A DNA stretch of 64,000 nucleotides from Elusimicrobiota bacterium (GTDB lineage: Bacteria; Elusimicrobiota; Endomicrobiia; Endomicrobiales; JBDRNC01): NCBI GenBank assembly GCA_043811535.1, contig JBDRNC010000008.1, positions 46,867 through 110,866 of the forward strand, written 5' to 3'. A program made the position numbers and the translations under genes. Shown here piece by piece: positions 6,665-59,002 of the stretch. The notes beneath the pieces were generated by a model. The model had not been told where the DNA came from. It worked only from the letters and a program-made list of their open reading frames with translations, and made no database searches. Numbering within the stretch: position 1 is the first letter of the stretch; the number at the start of each line of letters is the position of its first letter.

Positions 6665-6720
6665 GATTACACAGATTTCAAACGAAGATTACACGGATAG
6701 CAAACGAAGATTACACAGAT
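6665..6720 (+). repeat. Orphan GATTACAC[A/G]GAT array, 3 units, 22-nt period
   Basis: Units at 6665, 6687, 6709; same unit as the left arm of the GxxExxY element. Confidence 0.9.
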
Positions 6721-6738
6721 ACGTCATTCTGATGTTGC

Positions 6739-6814
6739 TGTCATCCCCGAAATCCGTAATCGGGGAACCACTTTCACGGAAACTTGGATTCCCCGGTTAA
6801 ACCGGGGAATGACA
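6739..6814. repeat. TGTCATCCCC...GGGAATGACA double-hairpin REP-like element
   Basis: Two GC hairpins in terminal inverted TGTCAT/ATGACA; relatives at 11068-11097 and 14874-14907. Confidence 0.7.
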
Positions 6815-11199: not shown

Positions 11200-11952
11200 A
11201 TGAAGAAAACGGCAAAATTAATCGTGATGATGTTGTTCTTTGCGGGCGCCGCGGAAGCGCGTATCAACATGTTTGAGCCCTGGCACCCGGGGCAGGATTC
11301 AAAGATCCGCAGCGAATTCTCTTTCCAGTACATCGGATCCGTTCTTTTCGGGGATAAACTGCAGGAGATCCCGTTCCAGCTGTCTTACACGGCCGGAAAA
11401 AATATCGAGGTCGGGGGAAGATGGGGAGTGAAGAATTTTGACGGCCATTTCGGCATAAGCGACCTCCTGCTCGGCATGAAGTACGGTTTTCTGGAAGAAA
11501 CTATCAACAAGCCCAGTGTGATAGGCGAGATCGGGTTTTCACTGCCTACCGCCGACCAGAACAACGGGCTCGGGACCGGTTCTGTCGGCCTGCTCCTTAA
11601 CTGGGCCATAGAAAAAAGGATTGAAACTCTGACGGGCTACTTCGGGTTGGGCATGGCGATGTACTCCGAGAACAGCGACAAGGTTCAGTACGGGAATATT
11701 TTTTCATATCACGTAGGCGCAGGCTCACAGTACAATAAACTCTTGCGGATACACATGGAATTCAAGGGTTTCAACCACGGAGCCGCAAAAACCGCGGGCA
11801 TTCAGACTTTGGACAACTACCAGGAAATGTACCTCGCGCCCGGCGCGAATTACAACTGGACAAAACAGAACATGATACTTTCCGGCTCGCTCCTGTTCGG
11901 TCTCACGCCGGAATCGCACAAATTAGGATTTATTATAAGCAGCAACTTTTAG
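11200..11952 (+). CDS. Outer-membrane beta-barrel protein (putative transporter)
   Basis: Signal peptide, amphipathic strands, LPTAD..GLGTG, C-terminal Phe. Confidence 0.65.
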   Translation: MKKTAKLIVMMLFFAGAAEARINMFEPWHPGQDSKIRSEFSFQYIGSVLFGDKLQEIPFQLSYTAGKNIEVGGRWGVKNFDGHFGISDLLLGMKYGFLEETINKPSVIGEIGFSLPTADQNNGLGTGSVGLLLNWAIEKRIETLTGYFGLGMAMYSENSDKVQYGNIFSYHVGAGSQYNKLLRIHMEFKGFNHGAAKTAGIQTLDNYQEMYLAPGANYNWTKQNMILSGSLLFGLTPESHKLGFIISSNF

Positions 11953-11958
11953 TACAAC

Positions 11959-12058
11959 GATTACACCGATTTGAAACGAAGATTACACCGATTATCAACA
12001 ACGATTTCACAGATTATATAAAGACGATTACACCGATAAACAACGAGATTACACTGAT
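11959..12058 (+). repeat. Left arm of GxxExxY element: 5 x GATT[A/T]CACNGAT
   Basis: Units at 11959, 11981, 12003, 12026, 12047. Confidence 0.92.
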
Positions 12059-12073
12059 TAACGACTGGGGGAT

Positions 12074-12448
12074 ATGCAGATGAAGGAAACTGATCTTTTA
12101 ACTGCAAAGATAATTGGCTGTTGTTTTAAAGTTCACAGGGAGATTGGCCCGGGTTTCAATGAAAAAATATATCAAAATGCCCTGACAACTCTTTTCAATA
12201 AAGAGAACATTAATTACATAACGGAAAAGGAATACGAAGTAAAGTACTTAAATGCTAGGATAGGAATATTTCGCGCAGATATAGTAGTTGAAGAGAAGGT
12301 AATAGTAGAGATAAAGGCGGTAACAGGAGATATCACCAAGTTATTTGAAAAACAAGTTATTTCGTATTTAAAGTCGTCGGGGCATAAAATTGGGTTGTTG
12401 ATAAATTTTGGCAATGAAAGCTGTCAGATAAAAAGACTTGTTAGTTAA
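12074..12448 (+). CDS. GxxExxY protein (PD-(D/E)XK nuclease fold)
   Basis: GPGFNEKIY, RADIVVEEKVIVEIK, GLLINFG; visibly AT-richer than its flanks. Confidence 0.93.
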   Translation: MQMKETDLLTAKIIGCCFKVHREIGPGFNEKIYQNALTTLFNKENINYITEKEYEVKYLNARIGIFRADIVVEEKVIVEIKAVTGDITKLFEKQVISYLKSSGHKIGLLINFGNESCQIKRLVS

Positions 12449-12464
12449 TCCGTGTTTTGGTTGT

Positions 12465-12566
12465 ATCTGTGTAATCTGTCGTTAGTAATCTGCGCAATCG
12501 TCGTTCTTGTAATCTGTGTAATCGTAGTTTTTATCTGTGTAATCTTCGTTAGAAATCGGTGTAATC
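12465..12566 (-). repeat. Right arm of GxxExxY element: 5 x ATCNGYGYAATC (inverted)
   Basis: Units at 12465, 12488, 12512, 12533, 12555 are reverse complements of the left-arm unit. Confidence 0.92.
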
Positions 12567-12584
12567 TTTGTTCTAGGAGAGATA

Positions 12585-13883
12585 ATGAAAACATTCGTAC
12601 TGGACACAAACGTTCTGCTGCATGATCCTGAAGCGATGTTTTCGTTTGCTGACAACCGCGTAGTTATCCCTATGATGGTCATTGAAGAACTTGACGGTTT
12701 TAAGCGGGTTAACGATGAACGGGGGAGAAGCGCCCGTCTCATATCGCGCAGGCTCGACGGTCTGCGTTCCAAGGGAAAGATATCGGAAGGCGTGCCGCTG
12801 AAAACCGGCGGAACGTTGAAAATTGAGCTCAGCCATGAAGTAGAACTGCCCAAAGACCTTATCATTTCCAAACCGGACCACAATATACTCAGCATCGCCG
12901 TTTATTTCCAGAAAAAGGGCGATAAAGTATTACTGATAACCAAAGACATCAACCTGCGGATTAAGGCCGAAGCGATCGGCATAGACGCCCAGGATTACGA
13001 AAAGGAGAAAGTAAAATTTGAAGAGTTGTACAGCGGCTGGCGGGAAACAAAGGTTTCTTCCGACCAGATAGACGCGTATTACAAAAAAGGGAAATTGCAG
13101 GTAAACGAGAACTTCTTCCCTAACGAGGGCGTAATCCTGAAGGACGAGAGCGGGACCTCAAAAAGCGCTCTCGCAAAATACAGCAACAAGGACCGCGCGC
13201 TGATACCGCTATTTCATCAGAACGCCATTCCGTGGGGATTAAAACCGATTAACATAGAACAGCGCTTCGCCATAGAGCTGCTGCTCTGCAACGACGTAAA
13301 TCTCGTGACGCTCATAGGCGTCCCCGGGGCCGGAAAAACCCTGCTTGCGCTCGCGTGCGGACTCCACAAAACAATAGAAGAAAAACAGTTCAGGCGGCTT
13401 TTCGTCGCGCGCCCGATAATGCCGATGGGCCGGGACATAGGATACCTCCCGGGCACAAAAGAGGAAAAACTGACGTCGTGGATGGGCGCCATCTACGATA
13501 ATCTGGAGTTCCTTATTGACAGGAACCACATAGACGAAAAAACGGAAGATAAGATACAGTATTTCTTTGAGACCGGAAAAATAGAGATAGAATCGCTTAC
13601 GTTCATAAGGGGACGCTCTCTTCCGAACCAGTACATGATAATTGACGACGCGCAGAACCTGTCGCCGCATGAAGTCAAGACTATCATATCCCGCGCCGGC
13701 GAGGGGACCAAAATAGTGCTGACCGGCGACCCGTTCCAGATAGACAATCCTTACCTGGACGCTTCTTCAAACGGGCTGACCTATATCGTCGAAAGGTTCA
13801 AGGGGCAGGATATATTCGGCCATTTGAGCTTCACGAAAAGCGAGCGCAGCAGGCTTGCCGCTCTTGCTTCTGAACTACTCTGA
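12585..13883 (+). CDS. PIN-PhoH family protein (PhoH2)
   Basis: VLDTNVLLHDP PIN domain; GAGKT, GYLPG, RGRS PhoH motifs. Confidence 0.93.
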   Translation: MKTFVLDTNVLLHDPEAMFSFADNRVVIPMMVIEELDGFKRVNDERGRSARLISRRLDGLRSKGKISEGVPLKTGGTLKIELSHEVELPKDLIISKPDHNILSIAVYFQKKGDKVLLITKDINLRIKAEAIGIDAQDYEKEKVKFEELYSGWRETKVSSDQIDAYYKKGKLQVNENFFPNEGVILKDESGTSKSALAKYSNKDRALIPLFHQNAIPWGLKPINIEQRFAIELLLCNDVNLVTLIGVPGAGKTLLALACGLHKTIEEKQFRRLFVARPIMPMGRDIGYLPGTKEEKLTSWMGAIYDNLEFLIDRNHIDEKTEDKIQYFFETGKIEIESLTFIRGRSLPNQYMIIDDAQNLSPHEVKTIISRAGEGTKIVLTGDPFQIDNPYLDASSNGLTYIVERFKGQDIFGHLSFTKSERSRLAALASELL

Positions 13884-23356: not shown

Positions 23357-23388
23357 ATCCGTGTAATCATTTAAAAATCAGTGTAATC
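23357..23388 (-). repeat. Orphan GATTACAC array, 2 units on the minus strand
   Basis: atccgtgtaatc and atcagtgtaatc, downstream of the permease stop codon. Confidence 0.7.
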
Positions 23389-28348: not shown

Positions 28349-28413
28349 TAATAATAAGCAATCAGCAATTATCAATTAGCAATAAATTAAAACAAAGGCA
28401 TTAAAATATTACT

Positions 28414-29247
28414 ATGGTAAAGAAAATTGATTCAAAAGAACTTGGGCTTGTGATGGCCATAATCCTGGGCAAATACCTGTTCAAGACAGATGACCTCCAC
28501 TACGGCTACTGGACTCCTGACCTGAAGCTTGACGTGTCAAATATAGTCAAGGCGCAGGACAACCACTCAAACCTCATAATTTCCAATATTCCCGGAGGCG
28601 TTCAGACCATTCTTGACGTGGGCTGCGGCGCGGGCGCGCTGGCGAAAAGACTGCTCGCGAAAGGATGGCAGGTTGACTGCGTCTCCCCGAGCATGCTTCT
28701 TACGCGGGAAGCAAAAAAGCTTACCGGAGGAAAATGCGGGATGTTCGAATCCGGGTACGAGTCCGTGGAGACCGACAAGAAATACGACCTTGTCATTTTC
28801 AGCGAGAGCTACCAGTATATAAACCTGAAGAAATCCCTGGAACAGACCGCCAGGTTCCTGAAACCCGGCGGCCACATGCTTATATGCGATTTCTTTGAAA
28901 CGGACGCCGAGGGGGAAAGCGCTCTCGGAGGCGGACACAAGCTGGGCGAATTCTACGAAACCGTCAAGAAATACCCTTTCAAGAACGTAAAGGACATAGA
29001 TATCACCAAACAGACATCCCCGAACCTCGTGCTTATCGACGATATGCTCAAGCAGATGGGCCTTCCTATATGGGAACTCATCCACGAGATGCTCAAAACC
29101 AACCACCCGGCGGTATACAAGCTGCTGACATGGAAGTACAGGAAAAAGATAGACAAGATAAACCAGAAGTATTTCAGCGGCGCCAGGAACGGGGAAAACT
29201 TTGAGAAATTCAAGTCCTACCGCCTGATGCTGTATCAAAAACAGTAA
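28414..29247 (+). CDS. Class I SAM-dependent methyltransferase
   Basis: LHYGYW, LDVGCGAG, LKPGG. Confidence 0.88.
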   Translation: MVKKIDSKELGLVMAIILGKYLFKTDDLHYGYWTPDLKLDVSNIVKAQDNHSNLIISNIPGGVQTILDVGCGAGALAKRLLAKGWQVDCVSPSMLLTREAKKLTGGKCGMFESGYESVETDKKYDLVIFSESYQYINLKKSLEQTARFLKPGGHMLICDFFETDAEGESALGGGHKLGEFYETVKKYPFKNVKDIDITKQTSPNLVLIDDMLKQMGLPIWELIHEMLKTNHPAVYKLLTWKYRKKIDKINQKYFSGARNGENFEKFKSYRLMLYQKQ

Positions 29248-29275
29248 TTAGCGATTAGCAATTAGCTATTAGTAT

Positions 29276-29330: not shown

Positions 29331-29497
29331 TAGGTTGAGGAAGTTCCGTGACGCTCGAAAGGGCTATTCGGACACTGCCCCGCAACGGTAAATTAACGAC
29401 AGCAAGTAGCAATTAGCTATTAGCAATTAGAGTTCTTAACTACTCGCCAATTGCAAATCGCAAATTGCTGTCGTTAAGAGTCCGGTCGACAGCCTGT
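29331..29497 (+). promoter_or_regulatory. Cobalamin riboswitch with inserted hairpins
   Basis: GGAAG..CCGTG..TTCGG..ACTGCCCCGCAACGGTAA ... GAGTCCGG..GAC; upstream of cobO. Confidence 0.85.
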
Positions 29498-30867: not shown

Positions 30868-31923
30868 ATGGAACTGCTCCGAAAAACTCTACAGAACATT
30901 GAACCCATAAACGCGGAATTCATGAAATTCGCCCAGAAACGCCTCGATTCGCTCACAAAACCGCAGGGAAGCCTGGGCCGGCTTGAAGAAACCGCGAAAA
31001 AAATCTGCGGGATAACAAGAAAACGTAATCCCCACCTTGACGTCAAGGTGGTCATAACGATGGCCGCCGACCACGGAGTCACCGACGAGGGCATCAGCGC
31101 GTATCCGAAAGAAGTAACGCCCCAGATGGTTTACAATTTCATAAAAGGCGGGGCCGGCATCAACGTGCTCGCGAGGCACATCGGGGCGAAAGTGATCGTC
31201 GTTGACGTCGGAGTGGCCGCCGACCTTGAGCAAAGTGACGGGCTCGTATCGCATAAGGTGGGCTACGGCACCAAAAATATGGCGAAGGGTCCCGCAATGA
31301 CCGAGGACGAGGCAGTATCCTGCGTTGAAGCCGGGATAGAAATTGCCCAGGCAGAAATAGAAAAGGGAGCGAATATCATCGGGACGGGCGATATGGGCAT
31401 CGGAAACACTACCGCGTCAAGCGCGGTTACCGCCGTGATAACCGGCGCCGACGTCTCCAATATAACCGGAAAGGGTACGGGTATCGACGATAAAAAGCTC
31501 GAGCACAAGATTTCCGTAATAAGGAAAACCCTTGAAATCAATAAGCCGGACCGGGAAAAAGCCCTGGACGTGCTTTCAAAAGTCGGAGGCTTTGAGATCG
31601 GCGGAATCGCCGGAGTGATATTGGCTTGCGCTTCAAATAAGATACCCGTGGTAATAGACGGCTTCATTTCCGGCGCCGGGGCGCTCATCGCTTACGCGCT
31701 TGATCCGAAAACCGCGGATTACATGATAGCTTCCCACTTGTCCGTGGAGTGCGGCCATAAAACCATCCTGGACCATATAGGATTGAAGCCCCTTTTTGAC
31801 CTTGATTTGAGGCTCGGAGAAGGCACGGGCGCCGCGCTCGGCATAGGCTTCTGCGACGCGTCTTTAAAAATATTGAATGAAATGGCATCTTTTAAAGAAG
31901 CCGGTGTGTCCGAAAAACAATGA
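30868..31923 (+). CDS. cobT: Nicotinate-nucleotide-dimethylbenzimidazole phosphoribosyltransferase
   Basis: LTKPQGSLGRLE, ADHG, GDMGIGNTT, LRLGEGTGA. Confidence 0.95.
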   Translation: MELLRKTLQNIEPINAEFMKFAQKRLDSLTKPQGSLGRLEETAKKICGITRKRNPHLDVKVVITMAADHGVTDEGISAYPKEVTPQMVYNFIKGGAGINVLARHIGAKVIVVDVGVAADLEQSDGLVSHKVGYGTKNMAKGPAMTEDEAVSCVEAGIEIAQAEIEKGANIIGTGDMGIGNTTASSAVTAVITGADVSNITGKGTGIDDKKLEHKISVIRKTLEINKPDREKALDVLSKVGGFEIGGIAGVILACASNKIPVVIDGFISGAGALIAYALDPKTADYMIASHLSVECGHKTILDHIGLKPLFDLDLRLGEGTGAALGIGFCDASLKILNEMASFKEAGVSEKQ

Positions 31924-31961
31924 ACAATTAGCAATTGTCAATTAACAATGGAGGTTTACTT

Positions 31962-33687: not shown

Positions 33688-34355
33688 TGAAAGTTATCAT
33701 ATCCTGGAGCGGAGGGAAGGACAGCTGCCTGGCGCTTTATAAGGCGATAAAAGCCGGGCACCAGCCCGTTGTGCTCCTGAATTACATATCGGAAGAACAT
33801 AAAAGGTGCTGTTTCCACGGCGTCCCGATGGAACTCATAAAGGCGCAGGCCGATTCCCTGGGCATACCGCTTGAACAGAAAGCCGCGCCGGCGACCATGG
33901 AAGGCTACGAAAAAATGTTCAAGGAAGCGGTTCGCGAATTGATGGCTAAATATGACGCCGAGGGCATGGTTTTCGGGGATATTTACCTGCTTGAACACCA
34001 GAGCTGGGTCGAAAGGGTATGCGGTGAAATAGGCGTTAAAATGATAGAACCGCTGTGGGAACAGCCGGTTGAAAAACTCATAGATGAATTCCTCGGATTA
34101 GGATTTAAAACGACAATTGTAAGCGCCAAGGCCGACATCCACGGCGAAAACTTCGTCGGGCGGGATATGAGCCCTGAAATAGTCCAAATGCTGAAGGCGG
34201 AAAAGGCCTGCGTTTGCGGGGAGAACGGCGAATACCACACCTTTGTTTACGACGGCCCGCTGTTCAAAAATAAGATCAGCATAACAAAGGCGGAAAAAAC
34301 ATTCAGGGACGGGTTCTGGAAACACTGGTTCTTAGATATACAAGAGTTTGCGTAA
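33687..34355 (+). CDS. DUF71/COG2102 ATP pyrophosphatase (Dph6-like, PP-loop)
   Basis: SWSGGKDS, FGDI, CGENGEYHTFVYDGP. Confidence 0.9.
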   Translation: MKVIISWSGGKDSCLALYKAIKAGHQPVVLLNYISEEHKRCCFHGVPMELIKAQADSLGIPLEQKAAPATMEGYEKMFKEAVRELMAKYDAEGMVFGDIYLLEHQSWVERVCGEIGVKMIEPLWEQPVEKLIDEFLGLGFKTTIVSAKADIHGENFVGRDMSPEIVQMLKAEKACVCGENGEYHTFVYDGPLFKNKISITKAEKTFRDGFWKHWFLDIQEFA

Positions 34356-34493
34356 AACACTAAACTCTAAATACTAAACACTAAATAAATCAAAAATTGT
34401 AAATCCAAATTTAAATATAATTGCAGTGTTTGATTTTTAGGATTTGTATTTTGAGCTTATTTAGTATTTAGTGTTTTGTATTTAGTATTTGAC
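34356..34493. repeat. Two-armed heptamer hairpin element (YACTAAA ... TTTAGTR)
   Basis: cactaaa ctctaaa tactaaa cactaaa ... tttagta tttagtg ttttgta tttagta. Confidence 0.85.
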
Positions 34494-35540: not shown

Positions 35541-36356
35541 ATGTTAGAACTTAATGGCGTATCAGCGGGTTATGGCGGACGAACAGTGATATCGGACATA
35601 TCGTTCCGCGCGGAAAAGGGCTCATTTCACGGGATAATAGGGCCGAACGGCGCCGGCAAGACAACGCTTTTCAGGACTATAAGCAGGATAATAGGCCTGT
35701 CCGCAGGCAAGATGTTCTTTGGCGGCAAAGACATCGGCAGGATCCCGAGGCATATTCTCGCGAAAGACGTCGCCACGATGCTCCCGCTTTACGACATTCC
35801 TTTCACGTTTTCCGTAGAGGAATTCGTCATGCTGGGCAGGTTCCCTCACCAGAACAGGTTTGAAAAACCGAAAAAAGAAGATTATGAATCGGTAAGGCAG
35901 AACCTTGAATTCACGGACATAATCAATCTGAAAGACAGGAAACTGAACGAGCTGTCCGGCGGCGAAAGGCAGAGGGCCATTCTCGCTCAGGCGCTCGCGC
36001 AGAAACCGAAACTCCTTCTGCTGGACGAGCCGACGGCATATCTTGACATCGGCCACCAGATAGCGATACTTGACCTGATAAAGAAACTCAACAGGGACGA
36101 CGGGCTTACCGTTATTACAATTCTTCACGACCTGAACCTCGCGAGCGAATACTGCGACAAGCTGTTGATGATGCGCGGCGGCGGAATATTCAGGTCCGGA
36201 ACTCCGGAAGAAGTGCTTACTTACGAAAATATAGAACAGGTGTATAAAACCGTTGTTGTGGTAAAGGAAAATCCGATTTCGCGCAGGCCTTATGTGATAT
36301 CGGTTTCGGGCGAAAGCCTGAAAAGGAAAACTGCCGGCACAGGGAATCCCGTGTAA
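35541..36356 (+). CDS. btuD: Cobalamin ABC transporter ATPase
   Basis: GPNGAGKT, LSGGERQR, DEPT, HDLNLA. Confidence 0.88.
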   Translation: MLELNGVSAGYGGRTVISDISFRAEKGSFHGIIGPNGAGKTTLFRTISRIIGLSAGKMFFGGKDIGRIPRHILAKDVATMLPLYDIPFTFSVEEFVMLGRFPHQNRFEKPKKEDYESVRQNLEFTDIINLKDRKLNELSGGERQRAILAQALAQKPKLLLLDEPTAYLDIGHQIAILDLIKKLNRDDGLTVITILHDLNLASEYCDKLLMMRGGGIFRSGTPEEVLTYENIEQVYKTVVVVKENPISRRPYVISVSGESLKRKTAGTGNPV

Positions 36357-36485
36357 ATCGGGAACAGCCCCGCTACTGTAATCCAGCCCTTACGGGTGTA
36401 TGGCAACAACCACTGCTATTTTTACGGCAGGAAGGTGCCATTCAGGAGAAGATTCTCCTGGGAGAGTCAGGAAACCCGTCGGCAA
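36331..36485 (+). promoter_or_regulatory. Cobalamin riboswitch overlapping the btuD 3' end
   Basis: AGGGAATCCCGTGTAAATCGGGAACAGCCCCGCTACTGTAA ... CCACTG ... GGAAGG ... GAGTCAGGAAACC; P1 tgccggc/gtcggca. Confidence 0.92.
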
Positions 36486-36616
36486 GAACACACTCGAGGG
36501 AGGACATATGACTACAGCAATTAGCACTTAGCCCGCCGCGGCGGGGCAATTAGTTCGGAGAAAACGGCAAAGGCATAGACAGAACGGCAACACAAAAACA
36601 AGAAAAAGGAAGAACA

Positions 36617-38494: not shown

Positions 38495-38572
38495 GATTGC
38501 ACAGATTATAAACGAAGATTACACAGATTATTAATGAAGATTACACCGATTACTAACGGAGATTCCACAGAT
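38495..38572 (+). repeat. Orphan GATTNCACNGAT array, 4 units, 22-nt period
   Basis: Units at 38495, 38517, 38539, 38561, starting right after the btuB stop. Confidence 0.9.
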
Positions 38573-38646
38573 AAAACAAATCCCCTGTATTCCACTTCCG
38601 AAGTGGCGAAGCCTCTTCGGAAGTGGCAGGGTGGCGAGGTCATGCA

Positions 38647-41384: not shown

Positions 41385-41458
41385 TATTACCGATTACAGA
41401 TTACAAATTACAAATTAACGGCCTTTAATATGTAGTCTGTAATTTGTAATGTGTAATT
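41385..41458. repeat. Two-armed heptamer hairpin (ATTACAA ... TGTAATT)
   Basis: gattacagattacaaattacaaatt ... tgtagtctgtaatttgtaatgtgtaat. Confidence 0.8.
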
Positions 41459-42156
41459 TATCTGTTTAATTTTAACTTCCAAACCCTGAAAAGATATTGT
41501 ATCAGCATCGATGGTTTCAGTTTTGATACTCCGGCGCCGCGCGCCATGAATTCAATCGGGACTTCGGTTATCCTGAACCCGTACTTCCTTATGTAATGCA
41601 GTGATTCTGTTACGACAAACGGATCCCGGGCCTTCAGATGCGGAAGAATTTTCACCATGACTTCTCTTTTAAAAAGCCTGAATCCCGAAGCAGGGTCCTT
41701 CAATTTTACGCCGAGAACGAGCGCCAGGTATTTGCGCGCGAACTCGCTTATAATATTGCGCAGGAAAGTTCTTTGTTCATCCTTGCCGCCTTCCACGTAC
41801 CTTGAACCTATTACAACGTCATATTGTTCAGCGGCTTCCACAAAAGCCGGAATATATTTCGGGGAATGCGAAAGGTCGCCGTCCATCTCAACTATCATAT
41901 CGGCGCCCAGTTCCAGCGCGACCTTGAAACCGTCTATGCCCGCCCACCCGCGCCCGCGTTTGTCTTTTCTTACGAGCAGGTTTACCCGCTTATCTTTTTT
42001 GGAAATCTCCTCGACGATCTTATATGTGCCATCCGGCGAGAAATCGTCCACGACAAGAACGCCTATGTCCAGCTTCAGCGTTAGTATCCTGTCTATCACG
42101 ATCTGGATGTTTCCGGCTTCATTATAAGTGGGGATTACTGCGATGATCTTAGGCAT
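41458..42156 (-). CDS. Polyprenol monophosphosugar synthase (GT2, DPM1-like)
   Basis: IPTYNE, VVDDFSPDGT, MDGDLSH, GSRY. Confidence 0.9.
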   Translation of the reverse strand: MPKIIAVIPTYNEAGNIQIVIDRILTLKLDIGVLVVDDFSPDGTYKIVEEISKKDKRVNLLVRKDKRGRGWAGIDGFKVALELGADMIVEMDGDLSHSPKYIPAFVEAAEQYDVVIGSRYVEGGKDEQRTFLRNIISEFARKYLALVLGVKLKDPASGFRLFKREVMVKILPHLKARDPFVVTESLHYIRKYGFRITEVPIEFMARGAGVSKLKPSMLIQYLFRVWKLKLNR

Positions 42157-43517: not shown

Positions 43518-44309
43518 ATGAACACTAAATTTAAAGCATTACAATTAAAGCTGCTTCAAATGAAACGCGTGCTCATCGCGTTTTCCGGAGGCGTGGATTC
43601 TACGTTCCTTCTGCATGCCGCCGTCAAGACGCTTGGCAGGAAGAATGTCCTGGCGGTGACGGCTGTAAGCGAAACCTACCCGAAATCCGAGCTGAAACTC
43701 GCGAAGAAGATGCTTAAAAGAACCGGCGCGAGGGGGATATTTATAAGAACCTCCGAGTTGAAAAACAGTAGATTCGCGTCAAATCCGCGTGAAAGATGTT
43801 TTTACTGCAAGGACGAGCTTTTCAAAAAACTCTCCGCTCTTGCGAAAAAAAACAAAATGATTCTGCTCGACGCGACGAATTATTCCGACAGGACCGACTT
43901 CAGGCCCGGGAGGAAAGCCGCGATGAAGTGGGGGGTCAAATCACCTATTGCTGAAGCAAAACTGACAAAAGACGAAATTAGAAAGTTGAGCAGGAGATTC
44001 AAGCTCCCCACGTGGGACCTGCCGGCGCAGGCGTGCCTGGCTTCCAGAATACCTTACGGCGTAAAAATCAGCACGGCGCTGCTTGCTAAGATTGAAAAAG
44101 GGGAAGCATTCATAAAAAAACTCGGCTTTACCAATGTCCGCATAAGAAGCCACGGCAATATCGCAAGGATTGAAATAGACAAGAAACAATTTAATAAACT
44201 ATTGGATGGAAACATCCGCAGTAAAATATATGCCTGCCTCAATAAACTCGGCTGGAGCTATGTCTCCGCCGATATCCTCGGTTACCGCACGGGTAGTTTG
44301 AACAATTAA
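43518..44309 (+). CDS. larE: ATP-dependent sacrificial sulfur transferase, LarE family
   Basis: AFSGGVDS, RCFYCK, DFRPG, ACLASRIPYG, GYRTGS. Confidence 0.88.
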   Translation: MNTKFKALQLKLLQMKRVLIAFSGGVDSTFLLHAAVKTLGRKNVLAVTAVSETYPKSELKLAKKMLKRTGARGIFIRTSELKNSRFASNPRERCFYCKDELFKKLSALAKKNKMILLDATNYSDRTDFRPGRKAAMKWGVKSPIAEAKLTKDEIRKLSRRFKLPTWDLPAQACLASRIPYGVKISTALLAKIEKGEAFIKKLGFTNVRIRSHGNIARIEIDKKQFNKLLDGNIRSKIYACLNKLGWSYVSADILGYRTGSLNN

Positions 44310-44410
44310 CAGTTAACAATTATCAATTACCAATGAACGACCAACAACGGGAATAGGACATCAAGAATGATTATTGATAATTGCTAATTGGTAATTGTTC
44401 ACTGCTATTG
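44300..44410. repeat. Two-armed heptamer hairpin (AACAATT ... AATTGNT)
   Basis: aacaattaacagttaacaattatcaattaccaatg ... attgataattgctaattggtaattgttc; supplies the larE stop codon. Confidence 0.8.
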
Positions 44411-52551: not shown

Positions 52552-53162
52552 CGACAATTACAGATTACAAATTACAAATTACATACAAAAAAAGAAACGG
52601 CGGGCAGGCCCGCCAAAGGCACTACGGCGGGCAGGCGCTTGTGGAAATTGTATTAGTCATTCCGCTTTTTATTCTTATCATATCTTTTACTTTGTGGTTC
52701 GCGCGGGTCTTGATAACGAAACAACAGCTGGTGACCGCCGCCCGATACGGAACCGACATGATCCTTTACACAACGCTCAACGAAAAACAGATAAAAAAAG
52801 AAATTCGCAATTACCTTTCGGATACCAATATTGAAGGAAGGAAACTTGATCCCGCCGGGCTGCCTGACGAAAATATCGCGGTTAAAATCGAAGGCTTCGT
52901 TCTCCCTGATTTTTCAAGCCCGTATGACCTGCTGGATCCTGGAAAATTGGGCAGACTTCTCGACGCGGGCAACCTGCTGGCCTTCCCTGAAAGGCACACT
53001 TCATGGGTTGAAATCCATTATGAATTCAGAACGCCGCGCGTCGTCTCGAATTTCAGCAGATATTTCTCCGGAGGTTTTCTGCCTGAGTCAATCACTATCT
53101 CGGGAAGGTCCGAAGTGCTCGCGGGAACCGGCTGCGGGAATGGGATACATGGACGACAGTAA
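52548..53162 (+). CDS. TadE-like pseudopilin
   Basis: GQ-ALVE + TM + AARYG; TTG start overlapping the upstream stop. Confidence 0.8.
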   Translation: MTTITDYKLQITYKKRNGGQARQRHYGGQALVEIVLVIPLFILIISFTLWFARVLITKQQLVTAARYGTDMILYTTLNEKQIKKEIRNYLSDTNIEGRKLDPAGLPDENIAVKIEGFVLPDFSSPYDLLDPGKLGRLLDAGNLLAFPERHTSWVEIHYEFRTPRVVSNFSRYFSGGFLPESITISGRSEVLAGTGCGNGIHGRQ

Positions 53163-53244
53163 TGAGTAATGGGTATTGAGTATTGGGTTTTTAGTATTTA
53201 GTATTTAGTGTTTAGAGTTTGTCTTAAATGGGGGGTGATTCACA

Positions 53245-53418
53245 ATGCTTATTAACTTCAGAAGGAACAGCAGGGGGCAGGGGATGGTGGAGTATATCCT
53301 GATAGTCGCGCTGATCGCGGTCATCGTGCTTGTCGGGATCAAACTATTCGGCGGCAAGATCAACACGCTGTTTCAGGACTCAGCCGAGAAGATTGAATCC
53401 GAGGCAAGGCCGCAATAA
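53245..53418 (+). CDS. flp: Flp family type IVb pilin (57 aa, absent from the ORF track)
   Basis: MLINFRRNSRGQGMVEYILIVALIAVIVLVGIKLFGGKINTLFQDSAEKIESEARPQ; SD GGGGGTG. Confidence 0.9.
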   Translation: MLINFRRNSRGQGMVEYILIVALIAVIVLVGIKLFGGKINTLFQDSAEKIESEARPQ

Positions 53419-53560
53419 CGCAGATTGTCACAGATAACTAGCACAGATAAGCGCAGATAAGACGTATCTGCGGCAATCTGCGTTTAAAAATCTGTTTAAT
53501 CTGCGCATGGGGCTTATCTGCGTTAATGTTTGTTGTCATAAAATCTGCGGTTATCTGCGT
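53418..53560. repeat. Gene-less two-armed CRCAGAT ... ATCTGCG element
   Basis: 4 left units and 7 inverted units; ends at the SD of cpaB. Confidence 0.85.
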
Positions 53561-57508: not shown

Positions 57509-57828
57509 ACGCAGATTAACGCAGATTCTTAAGACCAGATTACGCAGACAAAACCAAGACGCAGACGACTTCATATATTAAGTCAATGGAATCCCGCTTT
57601 AGCGGGATGAACACAGATAGAAAACTCAGATTAGCGCAGAATAAAACGCAGATTATCACAGAATTAAACTCAGATTATCGCAGATAATATGTATCTGTGG
57701 CAATCTGCGGGTATCTGCACATGAGGCTTATCTGCGTTAATACTTTTTGTTAAAGAATCTGCGGGCATCTGCGTATGAGGTTTATCTGCGTTAATACTTT
57801 TTGTTAAAGAATCTGCGGGCATCTGCGT
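57509..57828. repeat. Gene-less two-armed CGCAGAT ... ATCTGCG element with 54-bp tandem duplication
   Basis: 57721-57774 equals 57775-57828 with 1 mismatch; right arm homologous to 53505-53560. Confidence 0.88.
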
Positions 57829-57841
57829 ATAGGAGGGAGAT

Positions 57842-58825: not shown

Positions 58826-58844
58826 GATAGTGGCAAAAGTTACA

Positions 58845-59002
58845 CCGATAAAGGCAAACCCGGAGTAATCCGGGGACGCAAAGCCGAGGAACCTAGTAAC
58901 GACAGTATGAAATAGGAAGACAGAAGAAGGAAGAAAAGGCTGTTAACTTCCATCTTCAAACTTCAATCTTCCGTCTGTCGTTAAGGTTGGCTGGGGTGCC
59001 GG
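58845..59002 (+). promoter_or_regulatory. Cyclic di-GMP-I (GEMM-I) riboswitch with 87-nt insert in P3
   Basis: GGCAAACCCGGAGTAATCCGGGGACGCAAAGCC...AACCT//AGGTTGGC...TGCC. Confidence 0.85.

Follow-up and report, generated by a model that had tools for sequence, protein, structure and literature searches.

Inverted arrays of a short word bracket GxxExxY nuclease-family genes: a candidate mobile cassette with a RAYT/REPIN-like layout

Why should a small gene of the GxxExxY family lie between two arrays of one short word, five copies reading forward on its left and five in reverse complement on its right? The gene lies in a 64,000-nt stretch of contig JBDRNC010000008.1 (hereafter the window, meaning the whole stretch analysed), part of an Elusimicrobiota genome of 2.65 Mb in 40 contigs (G000), and with its arrays it forms an AT-rich cassette of ~610 bp. 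We propose that this is a mobile cassette working like the RAYT/REPIN systems with a different enzyme, a nuclease that recognises the units as the ends of its element. We give this proposal a probability of roughly 45%; its mobility mechanism and nuclease activity are what we infer from sequence comparison.

The sequence-only reading of this DNA had described a 124-aa GxxExxY gene with a D..ExK motif between two five-unit arrays of opposite orientation and 21-23 nt period, with outer linkers complementary enough for the arms to pair, the whole filling the gap from a stop codon to the Shine-Dalgarno sequence of a PhoH gene in a co-oriented run, and each of these points was borne out. Between 11953 and 12575 lie five forward units GATTACACNGAT, the GxxExxY gene (12074..12448, + strand, 124 aa plus stop) and five reverse units ATCNGTGTAATC. 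The left arm (11953..12065, +) has its units at 11959-11970, 11981-11992, 12003-12014 (1 mismatch), 12026-12037 and 12047-12058, all on the + strand, the first of them 7 nt past the stop codon of the upstream gene. The right arm (12461..12575, +), which ends 9 nt ahead of the PhoH2 Shine-Dalgarno sequence, has four exact reverse units (12465-12476, 12512-12523, 12533-12544 and 12555-12566) and a degenerate fifth, ATCTGCGCAATC, at 12488-12499. Tandem-repeat analysis gave a unit period of 21-23 nt in the arms, and the unit pattern with at most 1 mismatch matched the window 19 times against 0.85 expected, a count reached by 0 of 100 shuffles. The outer arms (11950-11992 and 12533-12575) are 88% complementary across 43 nt, linkers included. 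A G-rich Shine-Dalgarno-like GGGGGA (12064..12069, +) stands 4 nt ahead of the nuclease-gene ATG, and the same GGGGG motif is found ahead of the other cassette genes of G000.

The open reading frame (ORF) at 12074-12448 matched both PF13366 (PDDEXK_3; E 7.5e-34, 117 bits against a cut-off of 22, model positions 3-116/117) and TIGR04256 (GxxExxY; E 4.3e-37, 127 bits against a cut-off of 35, model positions 2-116/116). A sequence search of the PDB returned 0 matches, so the family has no solved member by sequence. The AlphaFold (AF2) model (predicted local distance difference test score, pLDDT, 96.1) matched best the folds of Cas4 SSO0001 (4ic1; E 5e-4, template-modelling (TM) score 0.62), lambda exonuclease (3slp) and Cas4 Pcal_0546 (4r5q), with the AdnAB/AddAB nuclease domains as further matches. 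Among 57 aligned sequences E30, D69, E79, K81 and Q94 are invariant and Y98 is conserved in at least 90%; by our own assignment, D69, E79-x-K81 and Q94-x-x-x-Y98 would be the D/ExK/QxxxY motif set of the RecB/Cas4/lambda-exonuclease branch. Invariant in the same sequences are G25, E30 and Y33, with G25 and E30 five apart as numbered and the G-x-x-E spacing unconfirmed residue by residue. With both the fold and the D, ExK and QxxxY motifs matching these nucleases, the protein models as a minimal PD-(D/E)XK nuclease of the Cas4/RecB/lambda-exonuclease type. It differs from Cas4 in being about half the size, at 124 aa, and in that none of the four iron-sulphur-cluster cysteines appears in the alignment consensus. 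According to the accessible part of PMC8934634, a GxxExxY gene has been labelled cas4 by another pipeline, and in the accessible part of Steczkiewicz et al. (2012) PF13366 is listed as of unknown function.

Bracketing by inverted arrays proved to be a family-wide association that spans more than 10 phyla, and at the level of sequence we regard it as solid. A homologue scan seeded with the 5 closest sequences, with one genome per species, gave 80 loci biased to the window's own subfamily, while a sample of 201 genomes from the window's phylum formed a wider set that takes in other GxxExxY subfamilies; bracket counts are lower bounds in that a simple rule set some start codons too far upstream or downstream. 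The 80 loci come from Latescibacterota, Nitrospirota, Thermodesulfobacteriota, Planctomycetota, Omnitrophota (including a complete Velamenicoccus genome), WOR-3, Bacteroidota (including Mucilaginibacter and Pedobacter), Chloroflexota, Bacillota and others. The sequence-only reading had suggested looking for inverted arrays at GxxExxY homologues, and they are present: at 75 loci the upstream and downstream flanks had a mean of 7.28 8-mers in common when compared inverted and 1.56 when compared direct, with at least three common 8-mers at 50/75 loci inverted and 12/75 direct. The same holds for a 6-mer occurring at least twice on both sides, found inverted at 45/75 and direct at 9/75 loci of the subfamily set, and inverted at 17/29 and direct at 5/29 loci of the window's phylum with all subfamilies included. 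Closer to the window, of 7 intact homologues from other families of its order, 6 stand between arrays of 2-4 inverted units; the remaining one is a divergent protein without the ExK lysine.

Flanks paired at random between different loci still had a mean of 3.0 8-mers in common; since permuted flanks match each other, the word itself is conserved. The top 8-mer, GATTACAC, occurs upstream at 35/80 loci and reverse-complemented downstream at 36/80, and its matches (the canonical unit counting twice) comprise 123 in the right sense upstream and 135 downstream, with 15 and 0 in the wrong sense. This regularity bears on another explanation, that an ordinary small gene happens to sit between two of the genome's many arrays. 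Arrays do occupy most intergenic regions of G000, and some ordinary genes there also lie between unit-sharing arrays, but a bracket that recurs around homologues in so many phyla with a conserved unit and a fixed polarity makes coincidence scarcely credible.

The word differs between branches of the family. Bacteroidota loci have the unit GATTTCACCGAT and an Omnitrophota/Planctomycetota clade GATTACAGCGAT or GATTGCAGTGAT; a clade that is separate in the protein tree, made up of the second G000 paralogue and two relatives, has shorter CGCAGAT or ACACGGAT units. That second paralogue (G000:C30:27069-27455) is bracketed by ~12 forward and ~8 reverse CGCAGAT-type units with a period of 9-14 nt. 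Other subfamilies have CACAGAG, CACGAAA, CGCAAAG, CACGAAT, CACGGAA, CGCGAAA or CGCAGAT on both arms, and the core common to the subfamily words appears to be C-R-C-N-R-A, which is our reading of the flanks and not a statistic. Within the main protein clade the unit variants follow sub-clades, and on these alignments the unit variant is seen to track the protein clade. The protein tree itself has vertical blocks (14 Bacteroidota rows) alongside clades that mix phyla, the latter in agreement with the 'multiple transfers' given for PF13366 in the consulted part of Steczkiewicz et al. (2012). Five of the 80 gene copies (L038, L066, L077, L082 and L091) contain in-frame stops and are probably decaying.

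How did the cassette come to stand where it does? It occupies the spacer from the stop codon of an outer-membrane type gene (PF13557; 11200..11952, +), on the left of the site, to the Shine-Dalgarno sequence and ATG of a PIN-PhoH gene (PhoH2-type; 12585..13883, +), on its right, and the three genes are co-oriented on the + strand. Because five relatives have empty sites and the cassette is low in G+C (32-39% against 46-54% in the flanks), we take it as solid, from sequence comparison, that the cassette was gained by insertion. The comparison covered 14 relatives of the same order, none of the same family or genus, of which 13 have the PhoH2 gene. In five of them (G003, G006, G007, G013 and G014) an outer-membrane gene lies directly upstream of PhoH2, the gene order outer-membrane/PhoH2/PHP is kept, and a spacer of 14-85 nt, against 632 nt in the window, holds no GxxExxY gene and no unit; three of these genomes (G003, G006 and G007) have GxxExxY cassettes at other places. 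The search for empty sites that the sequence-only reading had proposed thus succeeded, and the locus is not fixed. With relatives from the order alone, the timing of the insertion is coarse, and the exact cassette boundaries are unaligned because these relatives are too diverged for spacer alignment. The situation in Mucilaginibacter is unlike that in the window's order: at L070, L090 and L096, in several species, one and the same coding sequence precedes the cassette, so that its position there would seem to be fixed and passed on vertically. Phage records contained no homologue of the protein and plasmid records 4 weak ones, and neither set gives any hint that the cassette travels chiefly on phages or plasmids.

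Since the cassette sits in a co-oriented gene run and a signal scan found neither a promoter nor a terminator within it above chance, it is probably co-transcribed with its neighbours. No Rfam match at gathering score covers the arms, the window has no CRISPR context, and Rfam found no rRNA in it; the cassette lies between two protein genes, so it is not within a 23S rRNA helix.

The sequence-only reading had noted five one-armed or gene-less copies elsewhere in the window, all of which we recovered. Three are one-armed and gene-less: 3 forward units at 6665..6720 (+), 8 nt past a stop codon; 2 units at 23357..23388 (-), between two minus-strand genes; and 4 units, two of them with 1 mismatch, at 38495..38572 (+), 4 nt past a stop codon. 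Two are gene-less inverted arrays without assigned strand, one at 53410..53560 with a CGCAGAT/CACAGAT unit, the type that brackets the second GxxExxY gene (G000:C30), and one at 57509..57830 with a CGCAGAT-type unit that includes a 54-nt higher-order repeat. As a separate observation, two of the one-armed arrays are followed by G+C-rich stem-loops at 6721-6810 and 38573-38640 (ccccgaaatccgtaatcgggg; cacttccgaagtggcg..cttcggaagtggca), which may be terminators or other elements.

Throughout G000 there are 168 exact GATTACACNGAT units, or 201 when A or T is allowed at position 5, of which 187 lie outside crude gene calls; they form 77 clusters, in a genome with two GxxExxY genes of which only one is of the window's type. 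All two-armed clusters (29/29) run forward-then-reverse as in the cassette and 0 run the opposite way. In gene-less doublets the innermost units are 4-6 nt apart, at the place taken by the gene in cassettes. Most classified intergenic units (141/186) lie between co-oriented genes, often directly past stop codons, and the one-armed clusters between co-oriented genes comprise 18 in sense and 17 in antisense orientation. Forward and reverse units differ weakly at position 9, which is A in 55/111 forward and 87/131 reverse units. For the second unit type, clusters of at least 3 sites number 11 in G000, two of them around its gene, with 0 in the reversed control; the 8-mer CGCAGATW was dropped as a marker of this type for being too unspecific. 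A further gene-less form is a ~145-nt repeat family with sharp ends, in which a 2+2 GATTACAC doublet stands between two other stem-loops; 9 copies aligned at 73-94% identity, one at G000:C8:111675-111817, 0.8 kb past the window end, and 8 others.

Across the phylum, gene-less copies are found mainly in genomes that carry a gene, with exceptions both ways. Among the 201 genomes, which are kin and therefore not independent counts, 19 have at least 2 tandem unit pairs, and a PF13366 gene was found in 14 of these and none in 5; of the 182 with fewer than 2 pairs, 11 have a PF13366 gene and in 171 none was found. Of the 11 gene-positive, pair-poor genomes, most have genes of different subfamilies, whose units differ too. 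In five genomes identified by way of loci in other phyla, units number 13-67 and genes 1-3, against 0-4 in controls. One genome (G004) combines ~105 units with no intact gene, and at a right arm it retains a remnant of 22 aa from the C-terminus (L187 1515-1625, G004:C23), truncated at its 5' end to the last 22 codons, which are followed by two reverse units.

Do the arms matter as a stem in RNA or as words on DNA? The sequence 11945-12580 folds as RNA into a structure in which the arms pair over their full length (dG -195.6 kcal/mol, z -9.3, 0/20 shuffles as stable). This full-length pairing, the complementarity of the outer 43 nt and the lack of own promoter or terminator signals above chance are what would be seen if the cassette were an RNA element like the intervening sequences (IVSs) of rRNA. 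Here the stem would be the selected property and the nuclease a passenger ORF; RNase III would cut the co-transcribed stem, so that the small mRNA is set free or inactivated and the messages on its two sides become separate. Genes of the '23S rRNA IVS protein' family (PF05635) with the same architecture occur in G000 and its phylum, and there is a precedent in the IVS of Coxiella 23S rRNA, for which the consulted part of PMC4990558 describes tandem GACAGAT heptamers ahead of an S23p ORF, a 28-bp inverted-repeat stem and cutting by RNase III in vitro. We nevertheless consider this explanation unlikely. Nested unit pairs of gene-less doublets (n=61) do not co-vary, agreement at position 9 being seen in 18 pairs (24.0 expected) and at position 5 in 32 (34.4 expected); the linkers between units at 26 loci are mostly non-complementary, with 54% agreement between arms against 41 ± 2% for permuted loci; one-armed arrays are equally sense and antisense; what is conserved from phylum to phylum is the sequence of the unit, and not its pairing alone; and the catalytic residues of the supposed passenger are invariant in the 57 sequences. 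Because of the missing co-variation, the non-complementary linkers, the absence of a sense bias and the cross-phylum conservation of the word, the evidence favours recognition of the units as sequence, most simply on DNA, over a selected stem. The IVS-like stem, excised from the transcript, that the sequence-only reading had offered would still have a close precedent in Coxiella.

In layout the cassette matches an IVS, except that it lies outside rRNA and encloses a nuclease gene. Like the 23S IVSs of Coxiella and Leptospira with their S23p/PF05635 ORFs, the cassette has an ORF of ~120 aa in the loop of an inverted-repeat stem and probably lies inside a transcribed unit, those IVSs being regarded as selfish, and the Coxiella GACAGAT heptamers are close to the CACAGAT core found here. 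It differs in lying in an mRNA spacer and not in helix 25 or 45 of 23S rRNA, in encoding a PD-(D/E)XK nuclease and not a four-helix bundle, and in having gene-less copies dispersed in the genome; where Coxiella has a continuous 28-bp stem, the cassette repeats a conserved 12-nt word along each arm and leaves the linkers unpaired.

The IVS proteins have cassettes of their own in this genome. Of six PF05635 genes in G000, five have both flanks visible (C27:35177-35491, C12:54833-55150, C18:79723-80034, C28:36189-36500 and C27:28112-28393, all outside the window); inverted arrays clearly flank four of them, the arrays around the fifth are inverted in part, and the unit is a different one for each gene. 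In the window, several of the units are met again in hairpins without a gene. In the phylum sample 27/28 PF05635 loci (L158-L186) have at least 4 inverted 7-mers common to their flanks, against 6/28 for direct and 14% for permuted flanks. Two PF05635 cassettes stand 0.9 kb apart with units of their own, GGAGATT and GGTGATA (L176 1440-2800, G064:C108). Cassettes are also clustered in G098:C52, G051:C9, G053:C34 and G070:C70, and PF13366 and PF05635 genes occur within ~1 kb of one another in G070, G096 and G111.

Arrays of unrelated units are a general feature of G000. Tandem Repeats Finder (TRF) returned 2295 rows (785 of period 7) that merge to 1856 arrays. Array pairs less than 100 nt apart are inverted in 172 cases and direct in 12. 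So rich a supply of arrays would suit a homing-type selfish gene: a host process would make the arrays, and the nuclease would cut gene-less doublets and have its gene copied into the loop by repair. The 4-6 nt gap between the innermost units of doublets, which is the exact position of the gene in cassettes, fits this course of events, as do the same loop position in PF05635 cassettes and the presence of arrays in two genomes without an intact gene (G004 and G062). Yet 76 gene-less clusters are on offer in G000 and the genome has one gene copy of the type, units are nearly absent from genomes without the gene, and the G006 cassette has its own arms and no other targets. The gene remnant in G004 means, moreover, that its arrays may post-date gene loss and need not precede the arrival of a gene. 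We see homing as a minor possibility.

A single-copy gene with matching sites dispersed in intergenic DNA also invites a comparison with regulators, and the GxxExxY protein might be a non-mobile, sequence-specific DNA-binding factor that regulates its own gene and whose sites serve nucleoid structuring, insulation or termination. The co-variation of protein clade and unit would follow naturally, and so would the suggestion of vertical inheritance from the Mucilaginibacter cassettes. This is quite improbable, however, in view of the insertion shown by empty sites and low G+C, sites that are not tied to promoters (most lying between co-oriented genes), invariant nuclease catalytic residues, in-frame stops in some gene copies and a tree that mixes phyla.

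We therefore return to the mobile cassette. In our proposal the 12-nt units are most likely sequence-specific recognition sites of the nuclease on DNA that serve as element ends. The GxxExxY protein would bind or cut the units and would mobilise or maintain them in trans, gene-less doublets and one-armed arrays included, while the co-transcribed arms would form a long stem of the kind seen in 23S rRNA IVSs, which could make the insertion tolerable. The suggestion of the sequence-only reading that a nuclease with arrayed ends has non-autonomous derivatives stands as regards the anatomy, the insertion and the existence of gene-less derivatives, among them the ~145-nt repeat, and the nuclease itself may be what moves the element. 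The ends of Tn7 and Mu have multiple subterminal binding sites, and the cassette resembles these ends, and miniature inverted-repeat transposable elements (MITEs), in its several inverted sites spaced by ~22 bp at both ends and in its shorter gene-less derivatives; it differs in having no transposase or integrase of a known family, in the lack of any target-site duplication found, and in a unit number that varies between copies.

Several features are common to the cassette and RAYT/REPIN systems, as far as the consulted parts of PMC3116915, PMC5581495 and PMC8049555 describe the latter: the enzyme gene, as a rule present once, stands between inverted copies of its repeat; further inverted doublets without a gene are dispersed between genes; paralogues differ in their repeat type; repeats persist after gene loss; and in some clades inheritance is vertical. 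The likeness is one of sequence layout, and there are clear differences: the enzyme is of the Cas4/RecB PD-(D/E)XK type and not an IS200/IS605-like HUH/Y1 tyrosine transposase, the repeat is a non-palindromic tandem word of 7-12 nt where REP is a palindrome of 20-40 nt with a GTAG or CGTC tag, and the copy numbers of cassette units are lower (tens).

Several observations weigh against a mobile cassette driven by its nuclease. The strongest caution is that the architecture needs no nuclease, to judge from the PF05635 cassettes, whose non-enzymatic four-helix bundles show it as well. No target-site duplication and no near-identical array copies were seen at the arrays, which differ between loci. 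The ends of the ~145-nt repeat are TTGAGA-type inverted repeats and not units, no target duplication is evident at its copies, and it may have been moved by another enzyme. Conservation of the unit across phyla could reflect horizontal transfer of whole cassettes and not recognition by the protein, and the association of gene and unit was counted among related genomes. Individual genomes also fit poorly: G062 shows 44 tandem unit pairs but, at 91% completeness, no detected gene, and in G006 a gene with three flanking units is accompanied by one further copy only.

A broader view can be formulated, tentatively and with more doubt than the proposal itself: besides the HUH transposases, GxxExxY proteins may form a second and independent class of enzymes associated with repeats, every paralogue recognising its own word of 7-12 nt and bracketed by inverted arrays of it, with PF05635 as a parallel class and the rRNA IVSs as rRNA-resident members. 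Each paralogue would then seed or maintain gene-less array hairpins throughout its genome, and array-hairpin cassettes would populate the intergenic DNA of many phyla. On these findings a Cas4-like nuclease may operate a system similar to REPIN, which would explain why short inverted arrays crowd some genomes, and a link emerges between intergenic repeats and the rRNA intervening sequences, a puzzle for decades. GxxExxY (PF13366/TIGR04256) and the '23S rRNA IVS protein' (PF05635) are two widespread families of small proteins without a known role, and the clade-specific bracketing words and gene-less hairpins give both a concrete, testable substrate; with Mucilaginibacter and Pedobacter as cultured carriers, experiments are feasible. 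No published description of an association between GxxExxY genes and inverted arrays was found in the literature searched, with supplements and subscription journals outside that search, and the bracketing appears to be undescribed before.

Short repeat arrays as such have been seen in other bacteria. Abundant intergenic heptamer repeats are known from cyanobacteria as short tandemly repeated repetitive (STRR) sequences. The TAACTGA arrays of Beggiatoaceae are many, intergenic and common to distant lineages, nearly all of them direct and upstream of genes, with one inverted set of 170; they differ from the arrays described here in that the consulted part of their description (PMC4679880) mentions no enclosed nuclease or IVS-protein gene.

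Within the window and its genome, most intergenic regions have arrays of 7-8 nt units (AATTAGC, ATTACAA, AACAATT, TATTTAG and others), often as forward-then-reverse hairpins. Window examples lie at 28353-28383, 29246-29272, 29401-29465, 31916-31949 and 34355-34491, and further on at 41393-41459, 44301-44397, 52556-52583 and 53158-53215. When 100-kb pieces of four relatives were sampled for general array density, the TRF threshold let through 10 arrays/100 kb in shuffled sequence, too many to tell genomes apart cleanly; the heptamer rows alone differed, numbering per 100 kb ~30 in G000, 28 in G004, 13 in G023, 11 in G007 and 4 in G006. The Rfam matches of the window, both away from the cassette arms, are a cobalamin riboswitch at 36285-36497 (+, 69.5 bits) and a c-di-GMP-I riboswitch at 58843-58947 (+, 39.4 bits).

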